From an uncultured Bacteroidales bacterium (GTDB taxonomy: Bacteria; Bacteroidota; Bacteroidia; Bacteroidales; Bacteroidaceae): a stretch of DNA of 64,000 bases. Shown here piece after piece: positions 5,685-61,650 of the stretch. The stretch is from assembly GCA_902779165.1 (NCBI GenBank), contig CACZAN010000033.1, positions 23,310 through 87,309 of the forward strand, read 5' to 3'. Each line of letters starts with the position of its first letter. Positions within the stretch are counted from its first letter, which is position 1. The position numbers were made by a program, and so were the translations under genes. The notes beneath the pieces were generated by a model. The model was given only the letters and a program-made list of their open reading frames with translations, did not search any database and was not told the origin of the DNA.

Positions 5685-6932
5685 ATGGCAACAATAAAAC
5701 CTTTCAAGGGCTTGCGTCCACCAAAAGACCTGGTCGAACAAGTGGAGAGCCGCCCCTACGACGTCCTCGAAAGTGAGGAGGCTCGCGCTGAGGCTGGTGA
5801 TAACGAGAAATCGCTGTATCACATCATCAAGCCTGAAATCAACTTCCCCGTCGGCACCAGCGAGTACGACCCACGCGTCTATGAGGAGGCTGCCCGTCAG
5901 TTCCAGATGTTCCAGGATAAGGGCTGGCTCGTGCAGGATAAGGAAGAACATTACTACATCTACGCCCAGACGATGAACGGTAAGACGCAGTATGGTCTTG
6001 TTATCGGAGCATACGTCGAAGACTACATGAACGGCGTCATTAAGAAGCACGAACTCACGCGCCGCGATAAGGAAGAGGACCGAATGAAGCACGTCCGCGT
6101 GAACAATGCCAACATGGAGCCCGTCTTCTTTGCCTACCCCGACAATGCAGTCCTCGATGCTCTGCTGAAGCGCTATGCCGCCACAGAGCCGGAGTATGAC
6201 TTTATTGCACCCATCGATGGCTTCGGCCATAAGTTCTGGATTGTCAGCGACCCCGCAGACATTGCCACCATCACAGAGGAATTCCGCAAGATGCCGTCGC
6301 TCTATATCGCTGACGGTCACCATCGTTCTGCAGCTGCTGCCCTCGTGGGTGCAGAGAAAGCCAAGCAGAATCCCAATCACCGCGGCGACGAGGAGTACAA
6401 CTACTTCATGGCTGTCGCTTTCCAGGCTTCTCAACTCACAATCCTCGACTACAACCGTGTGCTGAAGGATCTCAACGGCCTCACCTCTGAGCAGTTCCTC
6501 GATGCCATTCGCAAGAACTTCACCGTAGAAGACAAGGGAACGGAGATCTACAAGCCCGCAAAGCTCCATGAGTTCTCCCTTTACCTCGACGGCCACTGGT
6601 TCTCACTCGTAGCCAAGGATGGCACTTATGACAACAACGATCCCATCGGCGTGCTCGACGTGGACATCTCCAGCCGCCTCATCCTCGAAGAGATCCTGCA
6701 GCTGGGCGACCTCCGCAGCAGCAACCGCATCGACTTTGTTGGCGGCCTGCGCGGCTTGGCTGAGCTCAAGCGTCGTGTGGACAGTGGAGAAATGCGTGCC
6801 GCCCTCGCCCTCTATCCTGTCTCGATGCAGCAGATCATGGATATCGCCGATAGCGGCAAGATCATGCCTCCAAAGGCCACTTGGTTCGAGCCCAAACTCC
6901 GCAGCGGCCTGGTAGTGCATAAACTGAGTTAA
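5685..6932 (+). CDS. DUF1015 domain-containing protein
   Basis: The N-terminus MATIKPFKGLRPP...RPYDV is typical of DUF1015. The gene follows serC-serA, as is common in Bacteroidota. Confidence 0.75.
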   Translation: MATIKPFKGLRPPKDLVEQVESRPYDVLESEEARAEAGDNEKSLYHIIKPEINFPVGTSEYDPRVYEEAARQFQMFQDKGWLVQDKEEHYYIYAQTMNGKTQYGLVIGAYVEDYMNGVIKKHELTRRDKEEDRMKHVRVNNANMEPVFFAYPDNAVLDALLKRYAATEPEYDFIAPIDGFGHKFWIVSDPADIATITEEFRKMPSLYIADGHHRSAAAALVGAEKAKQNPNHRGDEEYNYFMAVAFQASQLTILDYNRVLKDLNGLTSEQFLDAIRKNFTVEDKGTEIYKPAKLHEFSLYLDGHWFSLVAKDGTYDNNDPIGVLDVDISSRLILEEILQLGDLRSSNRIDFVGGLRGLAELKRRVDSGEMRAALALYPVSMQQIMDIADSGKIMPPKATWFEPKLRSGLVVHKLS

Positions 6933-6934
6933 CG

Positions 6935-7088
6935 GACCCACCCCCTGCCCTCCCTGTAGGGAGGGAGCAATTACCTTTCAAGACTGGTCTTTATTTATTA
7001 AGAAGTCGTTATTGATAACTTAAATGAATGATAGCAATCTTTCAAAAGTAACCGCTCCCTCCCTAACAGGGAGGGCGGGGGGTGAGTC
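6935..7088. mobile_element. GC-hairpin MITE-like element, copy E1 (arms 6935-6968 and 7054-7088)
   Basis: The arms gacccaccccctgccctccctGTAGggagggagc and gctccctccctAACAgggagggcggggggtgagtc are inverted. The centre is AT-rich and contains the ATG at 7024. Confidence 0.8.
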
Positions 7089-9020: not shown

Positions 9021-10202
9021 CTACAGCACTCCTTTGCTGGATGGGAGCTGCATGTGGTGGATGTCGCGACGGACTGCCATGCGGATAGCGCGGGCAAGGG
9101 CTTTGAAGATACCTTCGATCTTGTGGTGTTCGTTCTGTCCTTCGGCTTTGATGTTGAGGTTCATGCGAGCTGAGTCGCTGAGGCTCTTGAAGAAATGGAG
9201 GAACATCTCGGTGGGCATCTCGCCTACGCGTTCGCGGTAGAAGTCGGCTTGCCATACGAGCCAGGGGCGCCCTCCGAAGTCGAGGGCTACGGCGCAGAGG
9301 CAATCGTCCATCGGGAGGGTGTATTCAGCCGTGAGGTTGCTGGAGGAGAGGCTCTCGGCGGTGGAGGTTTCGGAGCTGAAACCATAACGTTCTATGCCGC
9401 GCTTGTCGCCAAGAGCTTTGAGGAGTGCTTCGCCGAGGGCGAGGGCGGTGTCTTCGATGGTGTGGTGCTCATCCACATGGAGATCGCCTTTTACTTGGAT
9501 GTCGAGGTCGATGCTGCCGTGCTTGGCAATTTGTTCGAGCATGTGGTCGAAGAATCCGAGGCCAGTGGAGATGTGGCTTTTGCCTGTGCCGTCGAGGTTC
9601 AGGCTGATAGCGATATCTGTTTCTTTTGTGGTGCGGGTGACGTCGGCGCGGCGGGGGCCTGCGTAAATGATTTCAACGGCTTTCTCCCAAGTGTAGCCTT
9701 CTCCGAGGATGACAGCCTGGCAGCCGAGGTTGGCGGCCAGCTGTGCATCGCTCTCGCGGTCGCCGATGACAAAGCTGTTCGCGAGGTCGAAGGAGCCGTC
9801 CAGGTAGGCGGTGAGCATGGCGGTGCCAGGCTTACGTGTGGGGAGGTTGTCCTCTGGGAAGCTGCGGTCGATGAGGATATCGTCGAAGGTGACGCCTTCT
9901 CCCTCAAGGATTTCCAGCATCAGGTTCTGTGTGGGCCAGAAGTCCTCCTCTGGATAGCTGGGTGTGCCGAGCCCGTCCTGATTCGAAACCATTACGAATC
10001 GGAAGTCGGTGTGTTGGCGCAGGAAGCGCAGGGCACTGATGGCTCCTGGTACGAAGTGGAACTTCTCGAAGGAATCGATCTGCTCGTCGGCCGGTTCCTG
10101 CAGGATTGTGCCATCGCGGTCGATGAATAAAAGACCCACCCCCGTACCCCTCCCGTCAGTGAGGGAGGCGGGCATGCGCATAGATTCTTTATCTTTAGTC
10201 AT
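9021..10202 (-). CDS. hisB: Bifunctional histidinol-phosphatase / imidazoleglycerol-phosphate dehydratase
   Basis: HAD motif FIDRDGT at the N-terminus and an IGPD domain at the C-terminus. The start is uncertain: either the ATG at 10202 or a GTG inside repeat arm E2. Confidence 0.9.
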
Positions 10203-10283
10203 AACAGGAGAAAAACTAATTGAAAAAAGGAGTCAAAAGGACAGGAACTCCCCTCCCTGACGGGAGGTGTTAAGGGGTGGGTC
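10134..10283. mobile_element. GC-hairpin MITE-like element, copy E2 (arms 10134-10173 and 10248-10283)
   Basis: Same architecture as E1. It spans the hisC stop (10270) and the hisB start (10202). Confidence 0.75.
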
Positions 10284-18300: not shown

Positions 18301-18707
18301 CCAGTAGAAGTGAACAATAGCTCGTCGTCGGAGAGGAAGACCAGGGGCGTCTCGGCTGAAGAACGGGTCGTCAGGCGGGTCACGTCGTCACCCTCTGCGG
18401 TCATCAAGTAAATATCCAGGCTTCCCTCGCGTTCGCTGGCGAAGGCGATGTGCTTTCCTGAAGGTGACCAGACGGGCAGTCCGTCCCAGGCGGCGTTGCT
18501 CGTCAGCTGACGAGCCTGCCCGCCTGAAGCAGATACGGTAAAGAGGTCGCCCTTATAGGCGAAACAGATGGTTAGGCCATCGGGTGAGATGGCGGCGGAG
18601 CGCAGCCAGAGGGGAGACTCTCCCCCCGCCCTCCCTTGTAGGGAGGGAGCGATTACTAATACACTTGTAATAGCTATTTTAAGCAAAAAATGTTGAATTG
18701 CTTTCAT
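15348..18707 (-). CDS. Tricorn-like S41 family peptidase (TolB-type beta-propellers + PDZ + S41 domain)
   Basis: WSPSGKHIAFAS propeller repeats, a PDZ segment and VVDVRHNGGGW (S41) are present. The signal peptide and the PSLQGRAGGES segment are encoded inside repeat element E3. There is an internal K/E/D low-complexity insert. Confidence 0.85.
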   Translation of the reverse strand: MKAIQHFLLKIAITSVLVIAPSLQGRAGGESPLWLRSAAISPDGLTICFAYKGDLFTVSASGGQARQLTSNAAWDGLPVWSPSGKHIAFASEREGSLDIYLMTAEGDDVTRLTTRSSAETPLVFLSDDELLFTSTGLPTVEDMQYPSNTYTHIYKVRTRAGARPERFSDLTVGNVTVGPGGSLIYDAVKGYEDPLRKHHTSSIARDLWQVSFARHQTADRKAGRPANFAEYQQLTQTASEDRCPVYVAQSQTLYWLSEANGTFNVWSQKLNGGGKAQRLTSFTEMPVRYLTASQDGTLCFSWDGELYTMKAGSSPKKVNIRITADTNEKEALHFVFTGGATQVAHSPKGKEIAFILGGDVYVTSLDYKTTVRITDSPTRERHVTFSEDGRSLVYDSERNGRWALYRVSIKQKDEKLFTYATELTEEERLTPEDQTCFEPEYSPDGKKIAFLRGRQELCVLDANTKAITTVMPGRFQYSYSDGDQSFAWSPNSKYLLSEYLGTGGWNLTDIALIPADGKGEIVNLTNSGYSESNPRWVLGGKAIIFQSDRAGMRSHGSWGSEDDIYITFLNSDAYERFNMNKEERERFDEAEKERKDKEKKEKEEKEKKDKKDKKDKDDEKAKKEREEQQAKEDSIKAANPVLDLRDLDLRTVGLTSNSGNIGDAVLNKEGTKLYYVATNYPNGPALWERDLEKGSTSIKAQGVSFSVFDLTGDGKIAYYASGGRIKKLEIEDGKISDVEFEAFHNDYPAGWRKQTFEHIWHQTHEKLYDPDMNGADWEMLHERYSRQLQYVGNTRDFAELCSEMLGELNVSHTGCRYRPSNGTGNTLTTADLGAFLDDTYNGDGLRIMELIPGSPLTRQQGVGAGSIITHIDGQAIKAGEDYYPLLSGKSGRYTRLTIKDSKGTAKDYTVRLQSNYTEGLYRRWVERNEHIVDSLSKGKLAYVHIESMNTASFHELYRKLLSDKNRTRDAVIVDVRHNGGGWLHNDVCELLSGVAVAQFTPRGQYIGDDPYNRWTKPSCMLVCEDDYSNAHGTPWLYKELGIGELIGAPVPGTMTAVWWETIDDIVFGIPQVGMRDRRGKYLENQQLEPDHLIISQPGDLLHGRDVQLERAVELMLKKK

Positions 18708-18774
18708 ATAGAAAAATGCTTTGAACTTGTTTGGTAACCACTCCCTCCCTTACAGGGAGGGCGGGGGATGGGTC
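18616..18774. mobile_element. GC-hairpin MITE-like element, copy E3 (arms 18616-18650 and 18740-18774)
   Basis: Same architecture as E1. The centre holds the start and signal peptide of the S41 peptidase gene. Confidence 0.75.
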
Positions 18775-25881: not shown

Positions 25882-26637
25882 ATGAAGCCACTTTTCATAG
25901 CAGGACCGTGTGTCATCGAGAGTGCCGAGGTGCTCGATAGCGTTGCCTCGGAACTTGTCCGTCTCCAGCGGAAGTATGACCTCGATATTTACTTCAAGGC
26001 CTCCTTCGACAAGGCCAACCGCACCAGCCTCTCGTCGTTCCGTGGTCCGGGTCTTGAGCGCGGACTGCAGATGCTGTCTGATGTCCGTTCAAAATACGGG
26101 CTCCGGCTGCTGACGGATATCCATGAGAGTTCCCAGGCTGCTGCCGTCGGCGAGGTGGTGGATGTCCTCCAGATTCCGGCCTTCCTCTGCCGGCAGACCG
26201 ACCTGCTGGTGGCTGCGGCAAAGACGGGCAAGGTGGTGAACATCAAGAAAGCCCAGTTCCTTTCGGGTCAGGATATGCAGTTCCCTGTGGAGAAGTGCCG
26301 CGAGAGCGGAGCCGTCGACGTGTGGCTGACGGAGCGTGGCAACACCTTCGGCTACAACAACCTTGTCGTGGACTTCCGCAATATTCCTGAGATGTTGCGT
26401 TGGACGCCGCGTGTCATCATGGACTGCACCCACTCGGTGCAGCGTCCCGGTGCCGCAGGTGGAAAGACGGGCGGCAACCGGGAATTCGTGCCCTCGATGG
26501 CTTTGGCTGCCAAGGCCTTCGGTGCTACGGGTTATTTCTTCGAGACCCACCCCGACCCAGACCGCGCACTCAGCGACGGGCCTAATATGCTGCGGCTGGA
26601 AGATCTGGAAGGAGTTATTAAGAGCTTGATCGTTTAG
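25882..26637 (+). CDS. kdsA: 3-deoxy-8-phosphooctulonate (KDO-8-P) synthase
   Basis: I trimmed the start to MKPLFIAGPCVIES. A TAnnTTTG box lies 28 nt upstream. Confidence 0.9.
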   Translation: MKPLFIAGPCVIESAEVLDSVASELVRLQRKYDLDIYFKASFDKANRTSLSSFRGPGLERGLQMLSDVRSKYGLRLLTDIHESSQAAAVGEVVDVLQIPAFLCRQTDLLVAAAKTGKVVNIKKAQFLSGQDMQFPVEKCRESGAVDVWLTERGNTFGYNNLVVDFRNIPEMLRWTPRVIMDCTHSVQRPGAAGGKTGGNREFVPSMALAAKAFGATGYFFETHPDPDRALSDGPNMLRLEDLEGVIKSLIV

Positions 26638-42854: not shown

Positions 42855-43857
42855 GTATTAGCGTATCAGTGTTGTAGCGGTTGTCTGCCTTGCCTCGGGA
42901 TCGCAGCCAGCGCAGTGCTGCATTGGCATCGCTTTGTGCCGGTCGGTAGAGTGGTGTAAAAGGTGGCAGCAGACGTACGATGGTGTCGCAGAGGGAGTCG
43001 GGTGTCAGGCAGAGCTCTTTCAGCAGTTGCGGCAGGCTGTCGCGTAATCCGTGGGGTTGGTTGGCGAGTTCCACCGCTTCGTGGTATCCTTGAAAGAGCA
43101 GTTGCAGCTGGCGGACTCGGCTGGAGTCGCGTGCCACACTGGTTGGTACGAGATAGGCGCCGAGTTGTGGCTCGAGTCCTCGGGTCGAAAAGTTGCGTAC
43201 GTTGCCGAGCAGACGGGCTTCGAGCGCGTAGGGTTCAGGCAGGAAGGCGGCATCCATAGTGCCGTTGCAGATCATATCTGTTCGGATGCGGACATCATTG
43301 ATTTGTGGTCGGAAGATGTCGGCCTGTTCCATTCGTGCCGAGTCCATCAGGCGGTCGCTCCAAAAGTCCGTGATGCTGTGTCGGGCTACGGCAACCATGC
43401 GTTCCTTCAGTTGTCCCAGAGCGCGCACACGTCCTCTTCGGGCTGTGATGAGTTGCAACTCGACGGGGGCAGTGGCCACGGCTCGCAGGTCGAACGTGTC
43501 GGTCTGCTGAATCATGATAGCCCTTGCTAAGTCGCTGTATACCAGTTCTGCACGCCGACGTAAGAGGGCGGTGTCGGTGTCGAGCTGCGCCTGCAGAGTC
43601 AGAATGCGCAGGTCGAGGCCGAGGCGCTCGTAGATTCCGGCGCGCTGGGCGAGGTAGAAGGGCAGGCAGTCGCTGACGGGCATCAGTGCCACGTGCAATG
43701 CTGCGGAGTCTCGCTTTGCCTCGTCGTCGGGGTCAACGGCGGTCGAGGAGTTGCATGAGACGAGGAAAAGCAAGCATAGAAAAAGGAAGAAGACCCACCC
43801 CTCACCCTCCCTGTGAGGGAGGGAGTGGTCACTTTTGGGGCTTGAAAATCTTTCCAT
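42823..43857 (-). CDS. NMT1/THI5-like ABC-type substrate-binding lipoprotein
   Basis: Lipobox FLVSC and an ALHVALMPVSDCLPFYLAQRAGIYERLGLDL periplasmic-binding fold. The start codon and n-region are encoded by repeat element E4. Confidence 0.6.
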   Translation of the reverse strand: MERFSSPKSDHSLPHREGEGWVFFLFLCLLFLVSCNSSTAVDPDDEAKRDSAALHVALMPVSDCLPFYLAQRAGIYERLGLDLRILTLQAQLDTDTALLRRRAELVYSDLARAIMIQQTDTFDLRAVATAPVELQLITARRGRVRALGQLKERMVAVARHSITDFWSDRLMDSARMEQADIFRPQINDVRIRTDMICNGTMDAAFLPEPYALEARLLGNVRNFSTRGLEPQLGAYLVPTSVARDSSRVRQLQLLFQGYHEAVELANQPHGLRDSLPQLLKELCLTPDSLCDTIVRLLPPFTPLYRPAQSDANAALRWLRSRGKADNRYNTDTLILEIHGLESIR

Positions 43858-43960
43858 ATAAATGGGGTTATATTCAATTCTTGAATGGTAATAACCCCCT
43901 CCCTCACAGGGAGGGCGGGGGGTAGGTCTTTCCCTCCCAAGGGAGGGTGGGGGGTGGGTC
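43792..43960. mobile_element. GC-hairpin MITE-like element, copy E4 (arms 43792-43826 and 43895-43928) plus an extra tandem arm at 43931-43960
   Basis: Same architecture as E1. The centre holds the ATG at 43857 of the substrate-binding lipoprotein gene. Confidence 0.75.
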
Positions 43961-49394: not shown

Positions 49395-50414
49395 ATGCTC
49401 GAAAAAATCAAGCAATTGCTCGAAGAAGTGAACGCTCTGGCAGCGGTCACCCCCGAGGAGGCAGAAGCCTTACGAATCAAGTACCTCAGCAAGAAAGGCG
49501 AGGTCAGCAAGCTGATGGAAGATTTCCGCAGCGTGCCGGCTGAAATGAAGAAGGAAGTCGGCATGAGAATCAATGAACTGAAGGCGCGTGCCACCGAACG
49601 CATCAACGAACTGAAGGCTGCTGCCGCAGCGCAGGAGACCGTGGCCGACGATGTGGACCTCACGCGCACTCCTTATCCTATACCTCTCGGAACGCGTCAT
49701 CCGCTGACGATCGTGAAGAATGAAATCGTGGATATTTTCTCGCGCTTGGGCTTCACCCTGGCCGAGGGTCCCGAGGTGGAGGATGACTGGCACGTCTACA
49801 GTTCCATGAACTTCGCCGACGACCACCCCGCTCGCGACATGCAGGACACATTCTTCGTGGAGGCTCACCCCGATATCATCCTCCGCTCCCACACCTCGTC
49901 TGTTCAAGCCCGCGTCATGGAGCGCACCCAGCCCCCTATCCGCGTTATCTGTCCGGGCCGCGTCTACCGCAACGAGGCCGTCAGTGCCCGTGCTCACTGC
50001 TTCTTCCATCAGGTGGAAGGATTGTATATTGATAAGAATGTCAGCTTCAAGGATTTGAAGCAGGTATTGCTGCTCTTTGCTCAGGAGATGTTTGGTCCCG
50101 AGACGAAGATTCGCCTGCGTCCCAGCTACTTCCCGTTCACCGAACCGTCGGCCGAAATGGATGTCAGCTGCACCATTTGCGGTGGCAAGGGCTGTTCGAT
50201 GTGTAAGGGCTCCGGCTGGCTCGAAATCCTCGGATGCGGCATGGTGGATCCCGCAGTGCTCGAAGCAAATGGTATTGATAGCACGCAGTACACGGGCTAT
50301 GCATTCGGAATGGGAATTGAGCGCATTGCGAACCTGAAATATCAGGTGAAGGACCTGCGCCTGTTCTCGGAGAACGACGTTCGTTTCCTCGAAGAGTTCA
50401 CGGCAGCCAATTAA
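49395..50414 (+). CDS. pheS: Phenylalanine--tRNA ligase alpha subunit
   Basis: Class II aaRS motifs (FFHQVEG, GFAFGMGIERI) and a full-length 339 aa. Confidence 0.95.
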   Translation: MLEKIKQLLEEVNALAAVTPEEAEALRIKYLSKKGEVSKLMEDFRSVPAEMKKEVGMRINELKARATERINELKAAAAAQETVADDVDLTRTPYPIPLGTRHPLTIVKNEIVDIFSRLGFTLAEGPEVEDDWHVYSSMNFADDHPARDMQDTFFVEAHPDIILRSHTSSVQARVMERTQPPIRVICPGRVYRNEAVSARAHCFFHQVEGLYIDKNVSFKDLKQVLLLFAQEMFGPETKIRLRPSYFPFTEPSAEMDVSCTICGGKGCSMCKGSGWLEILGCGMVDPAVLEANGIDSTQYTGYAFGMGIERIANLKYQVKDLRLFSENDVRFLEEFTAAN

Positions 50415-50415
50415 A

Positions 50416-50561
50416 GACCCACCCCCCGCCCTCCCTTTAGGGAGGGAGTTATTACATTTCAAGAATTGTTAGTTTTTCTGCAGATAATCTATTAAATGGA
50501 AAAAAGAACTCCCTGCGAAAGTGAACAGTGCCTCCCTACAGAGGAGGGAGGGGGGAGGATC
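50416..50561. mobile_element. GC-hairpin MITE-like element, copy E5 (arm 50416-50448 and a degenerate arm 50530-50561)
   Basis: Same architecture as E1. The centre holds the ATG at 50496 of the ABC ATPase gene. Confidence 0.7.
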
Positions 50562-51275: not shown

Positions 51276-52202
51276 ATGAAACTCGCTCTCATTCAGCAAC
51301 CCTGCACGCCCTCCGTTGAGGATAATCGCCTGCGTCTGGCGGCGGCTATTGCCGACGTGGCGGATCGCGGCGCACAGCTCGTCGTCCTTCAGGAGTTGCA
51401 CAATACGCCCTATTTCTGCCAGACGGAGTCGGTGGATAACTTTGACCTCGCCGAACCCATTCCCGGGCCCTCGACCGAGTACTTCGGTGCGCTGGCCCGC
51501 AAGCATGAGTTGGTGATTGTCACCTCGCTCTTCGAGCGCCGTGCTGCAGGGTTGTACCACAATACGGCCGTAGTGCTGGAGCGCGACGGCAGCATTGCCG
51601 GCATCCATCGGAAGATGCATATTCCCGATGACCCCGCGTACTACGAGAAGTTCTACTTCACTCCTGGCGACCTCGGTTTCCGTCCCATCGAGACCTCGGT
51701 AGGTAAGCTGGGCGTGCAGGTCTGTTGGGACCAGTGGTACCCCGAGGGCGCCCGACTGATGGCGCTGGCGGGAGCCGAAATCCTCATTTATCCCACGGCA
51801 ATCGGCTATGAGAGCAGCGACACGCCTGAGGAGCAGGCACGTCAGCGACAGGCGTGGCAGTTGGTGCAACGCGGTCACGCGGTGGCAAACGGTCTGCCCG
51901 TGGTGGCCGTGAACCGTGTGGGTCACGAACCCGACCCGAGCGGACAAACCAATGGTATTCAGTTCTGGGGAAGCAGCTTTGTCGCTGGCCCGCAGGGCGA
52001 ATTGCTGGCCGAAGCCTCGCAGACGGCAGCCGATAACCTGCTTGTGGATATCGACTTCAAGCGCTCGGAGCAGGTGCGCCGCTGGTGGCCCTTCCTTCGC
52101 GACCGCCGCATTGAAGAATACGGAGACTTGCTGCTGCGGTATCGCGAGAAGCCCACCCCCGACCCCTCCCCGGGGAGGGGAGTTGGGAGGTTTAAAGGTT
52201 GA
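51276..52202 (+). CDS. aguB: N-carbamoylputrescine amidase (carbon-nitrogen hydrolase family)
   Basis: Nitrilase-superfamily E-K-C context (VLQELH..., VCWDQWYPE). The last ~17 codons (PTPDPSPGRGVGRFKG) run into a GC-hairpin repeat. Confidence 0.85.
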   Translation: MKLALIQQPCTPSVEDNRLRLAAAIADVADRGAQLVVLQELHNTPYFCQTESVDNFDLAEPIPGPSTEYFGALARKHELVIVTSLFERRAAGLYHNTAVVLERDGSIAGIHRKMHIPDDPAYYEKFYFTPGDLGFRPIETSVGKLGVQVCWDQWYPEGARLMALAGAEILIYPTAIGYESSDTPEEQARQRQAWQLVQRGHAVANGLPVVAVNRVGHEPDPSGQTNGIQFWGSSFVAGPQGELLAEASQTAADNLLVDIDFKRSEQVRRWWPFLRDRRIEEYGDLLLRYREKPTPDPSPGRGVGRFKG

Positions 52203-52251
52203 ATTCGCCCATTAACCCCATTTGCCCCATTAGACCCATTTGCCCCATTAA
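52151..52251 (+). repeat. Composite intergenic element: variant GC hairpin (cccctccCCGGggagggg) followed by a 5-unit CCCCATTAN 9-mer array
   Basis: gcccacccccgacccctccccggggaggggagttgggaggtttaaaggttgaa is followed by gcccattaa ccccatttg ccccattag acccatttg ccccattaa. It is homologous to 54319-54410. Confidence 0.8.
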
Positions 52252-52263
52252 TAAAAAAATCCC

Positions 52264-53478
52264 GTGGCACTTCATTATACCCCCAATACTTCTACCATCA
52301 GCGACCTCACGCTGCACCTTGATCTCCCCTCCTTGCCGAAGGAGGAGCAGACGGAGTTGCGCGGTACGTTCTTGCCCGCCGAGTGGTATCCTCAAAGTGG
52401 CGTGCAGCTCACTTGGCCCCACGCAAATACCGACTGGGCAGAACTCCTTCCGGAAGTGGACGATTGTTTTGTTCGCATAGCACTCGAAGTGCTGGCCCAC
52501 GAGGAGAAACTGCTGATAGTGACGCCGGAACCCGACCGCATCCAGCGCCTGCTGCACGAGCGGATTCCCTCGCGTCTGCTGCCGCAAGTGCGTTATTTCG
52601 AATGTCCTACGAATGACACTTGGGCGCGCGACCATGCTTTCCTGACGTTGATTACGGAGGAGGGCCCGCGGCTGCTGGACTTCCAATTCAACGGCTGGGG
52701 CAACAAGTTTCCTGCGGAGCTGGATAATCAGATTTGCAGGAGAATGGTGGATGAGGCTAATGAGGCCAATGAGGCCGATGGGGCAAATGGGACTAATGGG
52801 GCCAATGAGGTTATTGGGGCTGATGGGGCGTTGCTGAGGGGTGTTTATGAGCCGCACCTCGACTTCGTCCTCGAAGGCGGAAGCATAGAGAGCGACGGCC
52901 GCGGCACGCTGATGACTACCAGCGAGTGCCTGTTGTCGGCCCAGCGCAACCCTTCGCTCAACCAGCAGGAGATAGAACGTCGCCTGCTGCACTTCTTCCA
53001 CGCTCAGCGCGTACTGTGGGTGGACCACGGCTACCTCGCAGGCGACGACACCGACAGTCACATCGACACCCTCGCCCGCTTCTGTCCGAACGATACGATT
53101 GTTTACGTGCAATGTACCGACCCCGCTGACGAACACTACGAGGAACTTCGCGCCATGGAAGAGCAATTGAAGACCTTCTGTGTGATGGGCAATGCTGTCG
53201 GCGAGGGCTACCGCCTGATTCCGCTGCCACTGCCGGCGCCCATCTATGACCCGGAGGACGGCCACCGCCTGCCCGCCACCTACGCCAATTTTCTCATCCT
53301 CAACCGCGCTGTACTGCTGCCCACCTACGGACAACCCGAGCTCGACGAACTCGCCCGCCGTCAGTTGCAGAAGGCTTTCCCGCGCTATGATGTGGTGCCC
53401 GTCGACTGCCGCATACTGATTCGTCAGCACGGTTCCCTGCACTGCTCCACGATGCAATATCCTGCCGGCGTTCTTTAA
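52264..53478 (+). CDS. aguA: Agmatine deiminase with an in-frame 9-bp repeat insertion
   Basis: WPH..TDW, LEGGSIESDGRGTLMTTSECLL, HIDTLARF and a GSLHCSTMQ catalytic Cys. The GTG start is uncertain. The insert EANEANEADGANGTNGANEVIGADGA lies at 52753-52830. Confidence 0.85.
   Translation: MALHYTPNTSTISDLTLHLDLPSLPKEEQTELRGTFLPAEWYPQSGVQLTWPHANTDWAELLPEVDDCFVRIALEVLAHEEKLLIVTPEPDRIQRLLHERIPSRLLPQVRYFECPTNDTWARDHAFLTLITEEGPRLLDFQFNGWGNKFPAELDNQICRRMVDEANEANEADGANGTNGANEVIGADGALLRGVYEPHLDFVLEGGSIESDGRGTLMTTSECLLSAQRNPSLNQQEIERRLLHFFHAQRVLWVDHGYLAGDDTDSHIDTLARFCPNDTIVYVQCTDPADEHYEELRAMEEQLKTFCVMGNAVGEGYRLIPLPLPAPIYDPEDGHRLPATYANFLILNRAVLLPTYGQPELDELARRQLQKAFPRYDVVPVDCRILIRQHGSLHCSTMQYPAGVL
52753..52830 (+). 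repeat. In-frame 9-bp tandem array (about 8.5 units) inside aguA, inverted relative to the 52207-52251 array
   Basis: The units are gaggctaat gaggccaat gaggccgat ggggcaaat gggactaat ggggccaat gaggttatt ggggctgat. They start on a codon boundary, since (52753-52264) is divisible by 3. Confidence 0.85.
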
Positions 53479-60328: not shown

Positions 60329-61402
60329 TATCTCTTTCTTTATTTGATACTCATTCCTCTGGTTCGAATTGCGACTTATAAGATCTCCCACGAAGCCGGC
60401 GAGGAAGAACTGGGTGCCCAGCAACATCATCGTAAGGGAGATATAGAAGTAGGGCGAATCGGTGACCAGACGTTGTGGAATGCCGCGCGAGAGGGCGTAG
60501 AGTTTGGTGGCTCCCACCACGATAGCGGCGATGAGACCCAGCAGGAACATCAGCGTGCCGCCCAGACCGAAGACGTGCATCGGTTTCTGTCCGAAACGCG
60601 AGAGGAACCACAGTGTCATCAGGTCGAGGTAGCCGTTGACGAAGCGGTCGAGGCCGAACTTCGTCGTGCCGTACTTGCGGGCCTGGTGGTGCACCACCTT
60701 CTCTCCGATTTTCGTGAATCCGGCGTTCTTCGCCAGGTAGGGGATATAGCGGTGCATTTCGCCGTAGACCTCGATGTTCTTCACCACGTCGCGGCGGTAG
60801 GCCTTTAGTCCGCAGTTGAAGTCATGGAGGTTATGTATTCCGCTGACCTTGCGGGCGGTGGCGTTGAAGAGTTTGGTGGGCAGTGTCTTCGATAGCGGGT
60901 CGTAGCGCTTCTGTTTCCAACCGCTAACGAGATCATAGCCGTCTTCCACAATCATCCGGCGCAGTTCGGGAATCTCGTCGGGCGAGTCCTGTAGGTCGGC
61001 ATCCATGGTGATGACCACGTCGCCTTGGGCGCGCTTGAAACCGCAGTAGAGGGCGGGGCTCTTGCCGTAGTTGCGGCGGAAGCAGATGCCCTTCACCTCG
61101 GGGTTGCTGGCGGCCAGTTCTTCGATGACCTGCCAGGAGCGGTCGGTGCTGCCGTCGTTGACGAAGATGATTTCATAGGTAAAGCCGTGCTCCGTCATCA
61201 CGCGCTTGATCCACGCGTGCAGTTCCGGCAGCGATTCGTCCTCGTTGAAGAGGGGCACGACCACCGAAATGTCGAGGGAAGAAGAGCCTTCCCCCGCATT
61301 GAGGGCAGACCCACCCCCCGCATTGAGGGCAGACCCACCCCCCGCCCTCCCTGTAAGGGAGGGAGCGGTATCTTGTACTGTTTGAGTTTCAAATAGGTCC
61401 AT
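60326..61402 (-). CDS. Family 2 glycosyltransferase (polyprenyl-phosphate sugar transferase, GtrB/DPM1-like) with a repeat-derived N-terminal extension
   Basis: VVVPLFNEDESL, DADLQD and two C-terminal TM helices. The first ~45 codons (..APSLTGRAGGGSALNAGGGSALNAGEGSS) derive from a GC-hairpin arm plus a 24-bp tandem duplication. Confidence 0.85.
   Translation of the reverse strand: MDLFETQTVQDTAPSLTGRAGGGSALNAGGGSALNAGEGSSSLDISVVVPLFNEDESLPELHAWIKRVMTEHGFTYEIIFVNDGSTDRSWQVIEELAASNPEVKGICFRRNYGKSPALYCGFKRAQGDVVITMDADLQDSPDEIPELRRMIVEDGYDLVSGWKQKRYDPLSKTLPTKLFNATARKVSGIHNLHDFNCGLKAYRRDVVKNIEVYGEMHRYIPYLAKNAGFTKIGEKVVHHQARKYGTTKFGLDRFVNGYLDLMTLWFLSRFGQKPMHVFGLGGTLMFLLGLIAAIVVGATKLYALSRGIPQRLVTDSPYFYISLTMMLLGTQFFLAGFVGDLISRNSNQRNEYQIKKEI
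61291..61368. repeat. Solo GC-hairpin arm preceded by a perfect 24-bp tandem duplication, inside the GT2 coding region
   Basis: cccccgcattgagggcagacccac occurs twice (61291-61338), followed by cccccgccctccctgtaagggagggagcgg. Confidence 0.8.
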
Positions 61403-61467
61403 ATATTTCGGATTTATGAATTTTCAATTTTTAATTATCAATGGGGCTAATGGGGCATTTATTTTTT

Positions 61468-61650
61468 GAAGTTTCGCAAGTGATGCCGTAGGCATCTGAC
61501 AATGGTAGCCAGCCATTTCAATGGCTGGTAATGAGGATGTTGACGGATAGCGTGCCGTAGGTACTACCAGCCGTTGAAACGGCTGGCTACCATTGTCACG
61601 CCCCGCTGGGGCTTTGTATTACAGCTTGTTAGCATACTATCGAAACTTGA
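61468..61650 (+). mobile_element. MITE-like element, family 2, copy C
   Basis: Same consensus as copy A. It lies immediately left of the DUF4199-like gene. Confidence 0.8.

Follow-up and report, generated by a model that had tools for sequence, protein, structure and literature searches.

Hairpin-bounded repeats in a Bacteroidales genome as probable miniature derivatives of a DUF559 element and probable donors of start codons to host genes

Repeats that donate a start codon to the gene they precede are known from Neisseria (REP2) and from the inverted (IR) repeats of Borrelia plasmids, both summarised by Delihas in 2011 (PMC3184786). REP2 is a dispersed repeat with internal stem-loops that stands directly upstream of many genes, where its own ATG is fused to the downstream open reading frame (ORF), and it also forms part of the 5' untranslated region (PMC3184786). 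A second kind of precedent is given by the Rickettsia palindromic elements (RPEs), palindromic selfish repeats that are kept in frame in genes and add short peptides at permissive sites. Here, a 64-kb stretch of contig CACZAN010000033.1 from an uncultured Bacteroidales bacterium was analyzed (the whole stretch is called the window, and element coordinates are given in its numbering). It holds a family of approximately 150-bp repeats, each bounded by two inverted hairpin arms and placed at the head of a gene. We consider it likely that these repeats are internally deleted, non-autonomous copies of an element of approximately 0.5-0.6 kb that encodes a DUF559 protein, and that the ATG they carry supplies the host gene with its start codon and a leader peptide. 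Taken singly, both features have a precedent, the start-donating repeat in REP2 and the in-frame repeat in the RPEs. Our literature search, with most subscription journals outside its reach, brought up neither an account of this Prevotella family nor any connection of DUF559 with a mobile repeat. A preliminary description of the window had already compared the family with RPEs, and rightly so, since in-frame arms are found within genes too; the DUF559-encoding parent, the origin of the ATG in an ATGA overlap and the Neisseria REP2 precedent were missing from it.

The present family shares with REP2 the internal stem-loops, the position directly upstream of many genes and the fusion of its own ATG to the next ORF. 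However, REP2 has no terminal inverted repeats, whereas the elements described here have long ones. REP2 also carries a sigma-70 promoter and a Shine-Dalgarno site; copies within genes are not reported for it, nor is a parent element or an associated gene described (PMC3184786). In contrast, the ATG of the present family stems from the stop/start overlap of a DUF559 gene, and the hairpin arm itself would be translated. No Shine-Dalgarno motif was seen in the elements. Bacteroidota largely do without Shine-Dalgarno-dependent initiation. The likeness to the RPEs is an analogy, as they differ from the family in phylum and composition. We are not aware that RPEs supply start codons in a systematic way or that they descend from a parent encoding a nuclease. 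Judged by this likeness, the family can be regarded as a Bacteroidota analogue of the RPEs, with N-terminal insertion accompanied by an own ATG as one mode. The repeats also have several features of MITEs (miniature inverted-repeat transposable elements), as they are short, lack a transposase ORF, possess terminal inverted repeats and occur as dispersed copies in 34 host-gene clusters. Their longer relatives with the same ends encode DUF559, not an established transposase. Among described MITEs, the Correia elements of Neisseria are similar in size (approximately 100-150 bp), terminal inverted repeats, co-transcription with neighbouring genes and a transcript that forms a long duplex. Unlike the elements here, they insert at TA with duplication of the target, have promoters that point outward and do not serve as coding sequence.

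An arm of the family reads GAC(C/T)C(A/T)CCCCC-NN-CCCTCCCT-(2-4 nt loop)-AGGGAGGGAG, and the second arm of an element is inverted. Five full copies, E1 to E5 (Table 1), consist of two such arms of 32-45 nt that enclose an AT-rich centre; they measure 137-159 bp, hold no ORF of their own apart from the outward leader, and are predicted to fold as a single hairpin. In total, 8 copies or arms were found in the 64 kb. Chance is excluded by the excess of the hairpin core CCTCCC-N2-8-GGGAGG, with 12 occurrences in the window against 0.02 expected, and of the terminal 11-mer (12 against 0.91). All five copies of the preliminary description were present, with E2 beginning one nucleotide earlier, at 10133 rather than 10134; the half element E6 and the two solo arms had been missed. 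E2 represents a divergent sub-type, and the right (B) arm of E5 is degenerate. When the copies were aligned, the homology of the centres was confined to the two ends near the arms, the middle being variable. The A end reads inward as ...GAGCGGTTACCTTTCAAGAAT, and the B end reads outward as A-rich-ATGAA..CAGTCAAATACATTCTGC-arm. An Rfam scan of the window at the gathering threshold found no known RNA family. The sequence GACCCACCCCG at 26544 was considered as a further copy and rejected as a chance match within a gene.

Table 1. Repeat elements and arms in the 64-kb window.
Feature	Position	Strand	Context	ATG
E1, full non-autonomous element	6935..7088	+	between DUF1015 gene and yigZ	7024-7026
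E1 arms	A (upstream) ~6935-6968; B (gene-proximal) ~7055-7088	+		
E2, divergent sub-type	10133..10283	-	hisC-hisB junction	10200-10202
E3, full element	18616..18774	-	ahead of S41/tricorn-like peptidase gene	18705-18707
E4, full element	43792..43928	-	ahead of substrate-binding lipoprotein gene	43855-43857
Solo arm (hairpin + terminus)	43929..43960	-	directly upstream of E4	
E5, full element	50416..50561	+	between pheS and ABC ATPase gene	50496-50498
Variant solo arm, CCCACCCCC-GA-CCCCTCCCC-GGGGAGGGG	52150..52185	+	C-terminus of ORF 51276..52202	
E6, half element (B end)	61308..61402	-	fused to GT2 glycosyltransferase gene	61400-61402

The origin of these repeats is indicated by longer relatives, in which arm pairs 480-630 bp apart enclose an ORF of approximately 120 amino acids (L044, L098, L113 and L006). 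In L064 the enclosed ORF is a pseudogene, and in L056, a Desulfoarculaceae contig, the ORF adjoins an arm. The encoded protein belongs to DUF559 (Pfam PF04480, 113.8 bits at a cut-off of 20.6, E = 5e-33), matches PDB entry 3hrl, from Neisseria, with E = 4e-16 and, at a weak level, the homing endonuclease I-Bth0305I (3r3p), which is Vsr-like. The geometry of this parent is constant, with the A arm, approximately 25 nt, the DUF559 ATG and, after the DUF559 stop, the B arm and the host gene. The stop codon TGA of DUF559 overlaps the ATG of the outward leader as ATGA (..TTTAAATGAATAC..). The window MITEs align with both ends of the parent, and their ATG falls in an invariant column together with the ATGA start. 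It can be concluded that the ATG in the window corresponds to the start codon that is coupled in translation to DUF559 at its 3' end.

For a broader sample, metagenomes were scanned with a DUF559 alignment, which gave 521 relatives, 39 of them with adequate flanks. Inverted arms of at least 20 nt surrounded DUF559 in 28 of these 39, but in none of 78 shifted controls; they were of the family's design, one situated approximately 10-40 nt ahead of the ORF and the other approximately 25-50 nt behind it. The stems vary by lineage, yet remain complementary (CTCCCCC/GGGGGAG, GCCCCC/GGGGGC, CCCCTCCCC/GGGGAGGGG and others). Of 81 loci, 41 have an ATG between -12 and +60 of the DUF559 stop from which a long host ORF begins, the commonest offsets being -1 and -5, and the genes fused in this way have diverse housekeeping functions (fmt, sufD, mnmA, leuC, argH and argC). 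Within the arms of loci L126-L205, the terminal segment repeats, in direct orientation, the 5' half of the arm's own stem (X-X-loop-X') in every sub-family, as in GCCCCTCCCCC-TT-GCCCCTCCCCC-GAAG-GGAGGGG and GCCCCCCC-AA-GCCCCCCC-GAA-GGGGGGGG, and the G-rich half of the arm could pair with either copy of X.

That DUF559 moves the arms is what we infer from these sequences. The arms might instead have been mobilised by another enzyme, for example an IS transposase with matching ends, while DUF559 is a passenger or a frequent insertion neighbour; the donation of start codons would hold in this case as well. Neither a target-site duplication nor a cleavage site was identified at the junctions compared, and no demonstrated transposase activity of DUF559 appeared in the literature searched, both of which would fit a different mobiliser. 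The same is true of the viral contigs of IMG/VR, on which only distant DUF559 relatives (at most 45% identity) were found, with flanking arms in 0 of 66; carriage of the element by phage was rejected on these grounds. However, the gene lies between or beside the arms, with constant geometry, in five independent Bacteroidales loci and one of Desulfoarculaceae, and arms that co-vary with it accompany most of the metagenomic relatives and none of the controls. Moreover, the B end of the MITEs has retained the last approximately 30 nt of the DUF559 coding sequence together with the ATGA junction, and D57, E68, D70 and H74, residues of catalytic type, do not vary among DUF559 relatives at identities as low as 46%. 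We consider a separate mobiliser unlikely.

With DUF559 as the presumed mobiliser, the family resembles REP/REPIN-RAYT systems, in which short GC-rich hairpins, single or as inverted doublets, flank one small, presumed mobiliser gene and co-vary in sequence with the enzyme lineage. The differences are considerable. RAYT is an HUH/Y1 enzyme similar to those of IS200/IS605, whereas the gene flanked here encodes a Vsr-like PD-(D/E)XK nuclease of DUF559 (PF04480). REPs are extragenic, whereas the arms here usually lie in translatable sequence (57 of 60 arms at gene heads in an open frame, in addition to the intragenic copies), and each of them has the terminal segment repeating the 5' half of its own stem, unlike REPs. 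REP/RAYT is, on this comparison by analogy, the closest organisational counterpart. Free-standing homing endonuclease genes of the Vsr-like I-Bth0305I family are similar in that a small nuclease gene of the Vsr/DUF559 clade is wedged among host genes that remain intact. In contrast to the DUF559 element, they have neither bounding inverted hairpin arms nor abundant miniature derivatives. There is a substantial chance that the partnership of DUF559 with these arms constitutes a new class of element. Going further, we hold it as a serious, though tentative, possibility that DUF559 is the mobilising enzyme of an unrecognised class of selfish elements in Bacteroidota, with relatives in other phyla, which would parasitise operons through co-transcription and ATGA coupling to the downstream host gene, spawn translated miniatures that reshape housekeeping proteins at N-termini, linkers and C-termini, and form a counterpart of REP/RAYT in coding sequence.

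In the window, the ATG lies 65, 70, 92, 66 and 66 nt from the gene-proximal end of E1 to E5, and in all five copies it is in frame with the downstream ORF, as had been noticed beforehand. The next in-frame ATG, GTG or TTG after the element ATG is codon 79 in yigZ, the UPF0029 domain of which covers residues 40-145. In the ABC ATPase it is codon 67, with the ABC_tran domain at residues 38-184 and the Walker A motif ahead of this codon. The S41 peptidase offers no further start before codon 101. For the lipoprotein, the next candidate is a TTG at codon 29, within the hydrophobic core and 6 residues before the lipobox cysteine, and the claim that yigZ, the ABC ATPase and the lipoprotein have no other usable start held for all three. 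As far as the reading frames tell, an intact YigZ, ABC ATPase or peptidase would be obtained from a canonical start only by way of the element ATG. The surroundings of the copies are tight: the stop codon of the DUF1015 gene (6930-6932) ends 2 nt ahead of E1, that of pheS (50412-50414) 1 nt ahead of E5, and that of hisC (10270-10272) falls within the upstream arm of E2. E3 has 27 extra nucleotides from the ATG to the arm, which code for a hydrophobic, signal-peptide-like stretch, and the leader of E4 takes the place of the n-region of the lipoprotein signal peptide; the orthologous lipoprotein loci L011 and L077 bear elements likewise. E6 contains a 24-nt in-frame tandem duplication of its terminus (61308-61331). 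The variant solo arm is read in frame as the final approximately 17 codons of its ORF.

A comparison of orthologous loci that lack the insertion, as the preliminary description had proposed, showed where these genes start natively. Near-identical orthologs without an element begin 1-4 codons from the junction. YigZ relatives of this kind (95-98% identical, 198 amino acids) start with MPIDSYLTI or MGLDSYLTI, whereas dozens of others at 78-99% identity have MNDSNxSKVTAPSLTGRAGGES ahead of xDSYLTI. Further relatives have an arm of another sub-type that is read in a different frame (MNQNQSTKDTTPLPKKEGQGGGS), duplications of the terminus that keep the frame (..GRAGGES-PAGGES-SDSYL) or brief remnants such as MGGSDTFLTI and MGESFDTFLTI. 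At the yigZ junction of L121, which reads TAA-GTGGGTC-TTGAT, a 7-nt remnant of the terminus now supplies a GTG start, and at that of L286 the sequence is TAA-G-ATG-GGTGGTTC-TGAC; both remnants retain terminus-coded residues. Most orthologs of the ABC ATPase start with MLTLHSATLAFGDR (native MLTLHSA..) and have Walker A at residue 33, while in those bearing an element a leader, for example MVNHSNSNSDHSLPHREGGGRV, moves Walker A by 20-34 residues to positions 53-67. The native spacer from the upstream stop to the downstream start is 0-1 nt in these orthologs, as in TAA-GTG and in the pheS-ABC junction TGA-T-ATG, which leaves no room for an untranslated insertion. In the S41 peptidases, the native signal peptide MKKTLLTFALAAACVAAKAVS-PLWLR is replaced by MKAIQHFLLKIAITSVLVI-APSLQGRAGGES-PLWLR in the window and by MIKHFLLLLMLT-APSLIGRAGGES-APLWLR in P0247, which contains the same arm peptide, and the element-derived leader appears to stand in for the signal peptide. 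At the position of the native signal peptide, these leaders have the hydrophobic stretches FLLKIAITSVLVI (E3 in the window) and HFLLLLMLT (P0247), which suggests a remodelling into an export signal. A related element occupies the same hisC-hisB junction in L121. Taken together, the domain boundaries and the N-termini of the orthologs place the true start inside the element.

The yigZ junction was also found to harbour other insertions. In L120 (2930-3000), the YigZ of which is 98% identical, an AT-rich palindrome of approximately 70 nt (AGTAGGTGATCAAAAT...ATTTGATTACCTACT) that is unrelated to the C-rich element lies at the DUF1015-yigZ junction. In another species, L285 (528-680) carries a chimeric element at the yigZ junction, with arms from two hairpin sub-types and TTG as the start of the leader; the element's first base is shared with the TAG stop of the upstream gene. 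Small palindromic sequences seem to insert with preference at this junction.

For a family-wide view, species-representative genomes were scanned for the arm pattern, which gave at least 119 loci. The following counts rest on the 83 listed loci that belong to Bacteroidales metagenome-assembled genomes (MAGs) from rumen, horse and human gut. Genes were assigned approximately, with a self-trained codon-usage classifier, resulting in 60 arms with a gene reading away from them and 58 with a gene reading toward them. Where a gene begins beside an arm, the frame is open through the arm in 57 of 60 cases, and the frame of the host relative to the terminus is distributed 43/9/8 (chi-square p = 2e-9). 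The element ATG is in the coding frame of the host in 30 of 36 cases, compared with a null of one third, and lies 59-74 nt from the terminus across the family. For genes that read toward an arm, the stop is mostly situated 1-9 nt outside the terminus, with a mode of 2 nt, like E1. An ORF of at least 100 codons past the terminus was opened by such an ATG at 37 of 79 non-A ends versus 1 of 17 A ends. The 38 long ATG-ORFs represent 34 host-gene clusters. Among them is trpS, where the leader is followed immediately by IILTGDRPTGPLHIGH and no alternative start occurs ahead of the HIGH motif, the first one coming 55 codons on. Further hosts are gltB, ispD, pyrI and a HAD phosphatase, and in many host lipoproteins the leader is in place of the n-region. 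As to a target motif, only the proximity of stop codons emerged, together with 5' flanks rich in purines and 3' flanks rich in pyrimidines.

Full elements, read as DSPPALPVREGA...APSLTGRAGGES, and single arms, read as PSLTGRAGGES, also occur in frame inside genes. DNA polymerase I (PolA) has an insertion between the 5'-3' and 3'-5' exonuclease domains, and a GH2 beta-galactosidase has one between Bgal_small_N and an F5/8-C domain; others were found in TamB, in an outer-membrane beta-barrel protein (twice) and in a GT1. The intragenic copies were confirmed by Pfam domains that flank the insertion on both sides. Of the single contexts, placement at the N-terminus with an ATG of its own is the most frequent. 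As part of the explanation that we regard as likely overall, the stop-free design would let elements and single arms survive in genes, in linkers and at termini.

These results bear on a further alternative, namely that the repeats are untranslated hairpins of the REP or MITE type, which act as terminators, mRNA stabilisers or processing sites, and that the continuity of the ORFs is an artefact, with translation from rare or non-canonical codons downstream. The arms are indeed stop-free in two of three frames, so that ORFs extend readily; gene callers always choose the longest ORF; and the elements form very stable hairpins, some of which are followed by T runs. Nevertheless, no alternative start lies ahead of UPF0029, Walker A or the TrpRS HIGH motif, the orthologs without an element start within a few codons of the junction, and the copies in PolA, GH2 and TamB keep the frame. 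The frame bias of the hosts and the predominance of in-frame ATGs are not expected for untranslated DNA either. We judge this alternative to be very improbable, and the proposal of the preliminary description that the element donates a start codon and an N-terminal peptide is upheld by domain boundaries, orthologs, junctions and frame bias alike.

The orientation of the elements is equally consistent. B ends face gene heads in a ratio of 14:3 and A ends face gene tails in a ratio of 21:8 (Fisher p = 6e-4), in agreement with the earlier remark that the ATG always points into the gene. The accompanying suggestion of an invertible ON/OFF switch, with the arms as recombination sites that flip the ATG-bearing centre, draws on the long, near-perfect inverted repeats around an asymmetric centre with a start codon, but the polarity is fixed over many genomes, the asymmetry goes back to the two ends, 5' and 3', of the DUF559 gene, half elements and solo arms follow suit and no orientation variants occurred among the YigZ or ABC orthologs compared, which makes it the least credible of the readings considered.

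Returning to the miniature DUF559 element as a donor of start codons, its mode of operation can be outlined as follows. As the comparisons show, the element occupies tight operon junctions and the very beginnings of genes and is oriented like its hosts, with its A end abutting the preceding stop and the frame of its B end running stop-free through the arm (typically ...APSLTGRAGGES) into the host gene. The parent would be transcribed along with the host operon and its DUF559 translated, and the ribosomes terminating there would start anew on the overlapping ATG and continue across the arm into the host gene, whereby the insertion would be tolerated. In the miniature copies, the same ATG would have to initiate alone. 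The host protein would then be made from the element ATG with an element-encoded leader of approximately 20 residues, an expected YigZ peptide being of the type MNDSNLSKVTAPSLTGRAGGES-FDSYLTI, and the native start, either redundant or occluded by the hairpin, would decay. Initiation by ribosomes at the element ATG is, like the transcription and coupling outlined here, inferred from the DNA.

Several observations weigh against this interpretation. In a read-through transcript of a whole MITE, a hairpin of -104 kcal/mol is predicted that pairs the ATG region, whereas without the A arm the predicted fold consists of local hairpins only. The notion that the paired arms present the start region as a loop is thereby contradicted, as the ATG is buried in the stem. 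Initiation would be hindered unless this hairpin is avoided kinetically, through two local arm hairpins that form co-transcriptionally, melted by ribosomes that terminate 2 nt upstream of the A arm, or bypassed by an internal promoter. For hisB, an in-frame GTG at codon 22, itself inside the gene-proximal arm of E2, could serve as the start, and the start of the GT2 gene is ambiguous, as a GTG at codon 47 is a possible alternative (the Pfam GT2 domain covers residues 46-209). The census loci were chosen by their arm pattern and many are from related MAGs, and a few of the 38 ATG-ORFs are probably spurious antisense frames. No target-site duplication was found flanking E1-E5 or in comparison with native or remnant junctions. 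The window itself contains no DUF559 gene, and we know of no case in which a PD-(D/E)XK protein of 120 amino acids alone acts as a transposase. Finally, short terminal duplications are a multiple of 3 in length in 13 of 19 cases (p = 0.002), but the recurrent 15-nt unit may be mechanistic rather than a result of frame selection, and in-frame duplications were downgraded as proof of translation for this reason.

With respect to the termini, the last approximately 12 nt (GGGGGGAGAGTC) are often present in tandem with a spacer of 3-12 nt (L005, L047, L062, L073, L078, L079, L094 and 61308-61331 of the window), most commonly as a repeat unit of 15 or 18 nt. These tandem repeats could have been left by the mechanism of insertion, or by insertions that recurred beside an old terminus. 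As for an internal promoter, many copies have a -7-like box, TAnnTTT(G/C), after the A arm; its spacing to any -33 element is poor and it is suggestive only. A promoter at the A end as the main function of the element is unproven, given that the evidence consists of this poorly spaced box and that only approximately 25 nt separate the arm from the DUF559 ATG in the parent.

If ribosomes do start inside the repeats, dozens of housekeeping and secreted proteins per rumen Prevotella genome would carry repeat-encoded leaders, and both start-site annotation and signal-peptide prediction in these bacteria would need to take the repeat into account. Prevotella is a dominant group of the rumen microbiome. 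The repeat would represent a natural, portable translation-initiation cassette for a phylum that initiates largely without Shine-Dalgarno sites. In a gene-dense genome, selfish DNA could persist by being stop-free and bringing its own start codon. DUF559 is a widespread orphan domain of Vsr-like nucleases. The link proposed here would give this large domain of unknown function a concrete, testable role, and it suggests a second partnership of the REP/RAYT kind on a different nuclease fold.

Arms that closely resemble those of the family (ACCCACCCCC-N-CCCCTCCCT-loop-AGGGAGGGG-AG) were also observed in distant phyla. They occur in Sphingomonadaceae (L009, L010, L024, L030-L032, L036, L041, L048, L066, L074 and others) and in MAGs of cyanobacteria, planctomycetes and Chloroflexia (L012, L015, L059, L071 and L076). 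Sphingomonad arms are often arranged as back-to-back pairs with their termini facing each other, approximately 40 nt apart. DUF559 was not found within the 8-kb blocks around these distant loci, with the sole exception of the Desulfoarculaceae locus L056, and the back-to-back arms of the sphingomonad, planctomycete and cyanobacterial loci possibly belong to a different system.

Two other repeats were noticed in the window. The motif GCCCCATTAG stands at 52224-52251 as a tandem pair after ORF 51276..52202, at 52793-52802 and, beside E6, at 61447-61456; with at most one mismatch, 7 matches were found versus 3.1 expected, so that its significance is weak. Just upstream of E6, at 61497-61598, lies a 34-nt inverted repeat (TGACAATGGTAGCCAGCCATTTCAATGGCTGGTA and its complement) with 94% complementarity and a 34-nt spacer; the repeat bears no sequence relation to the C-rich arms and may belong to another family of palindromic repeats.

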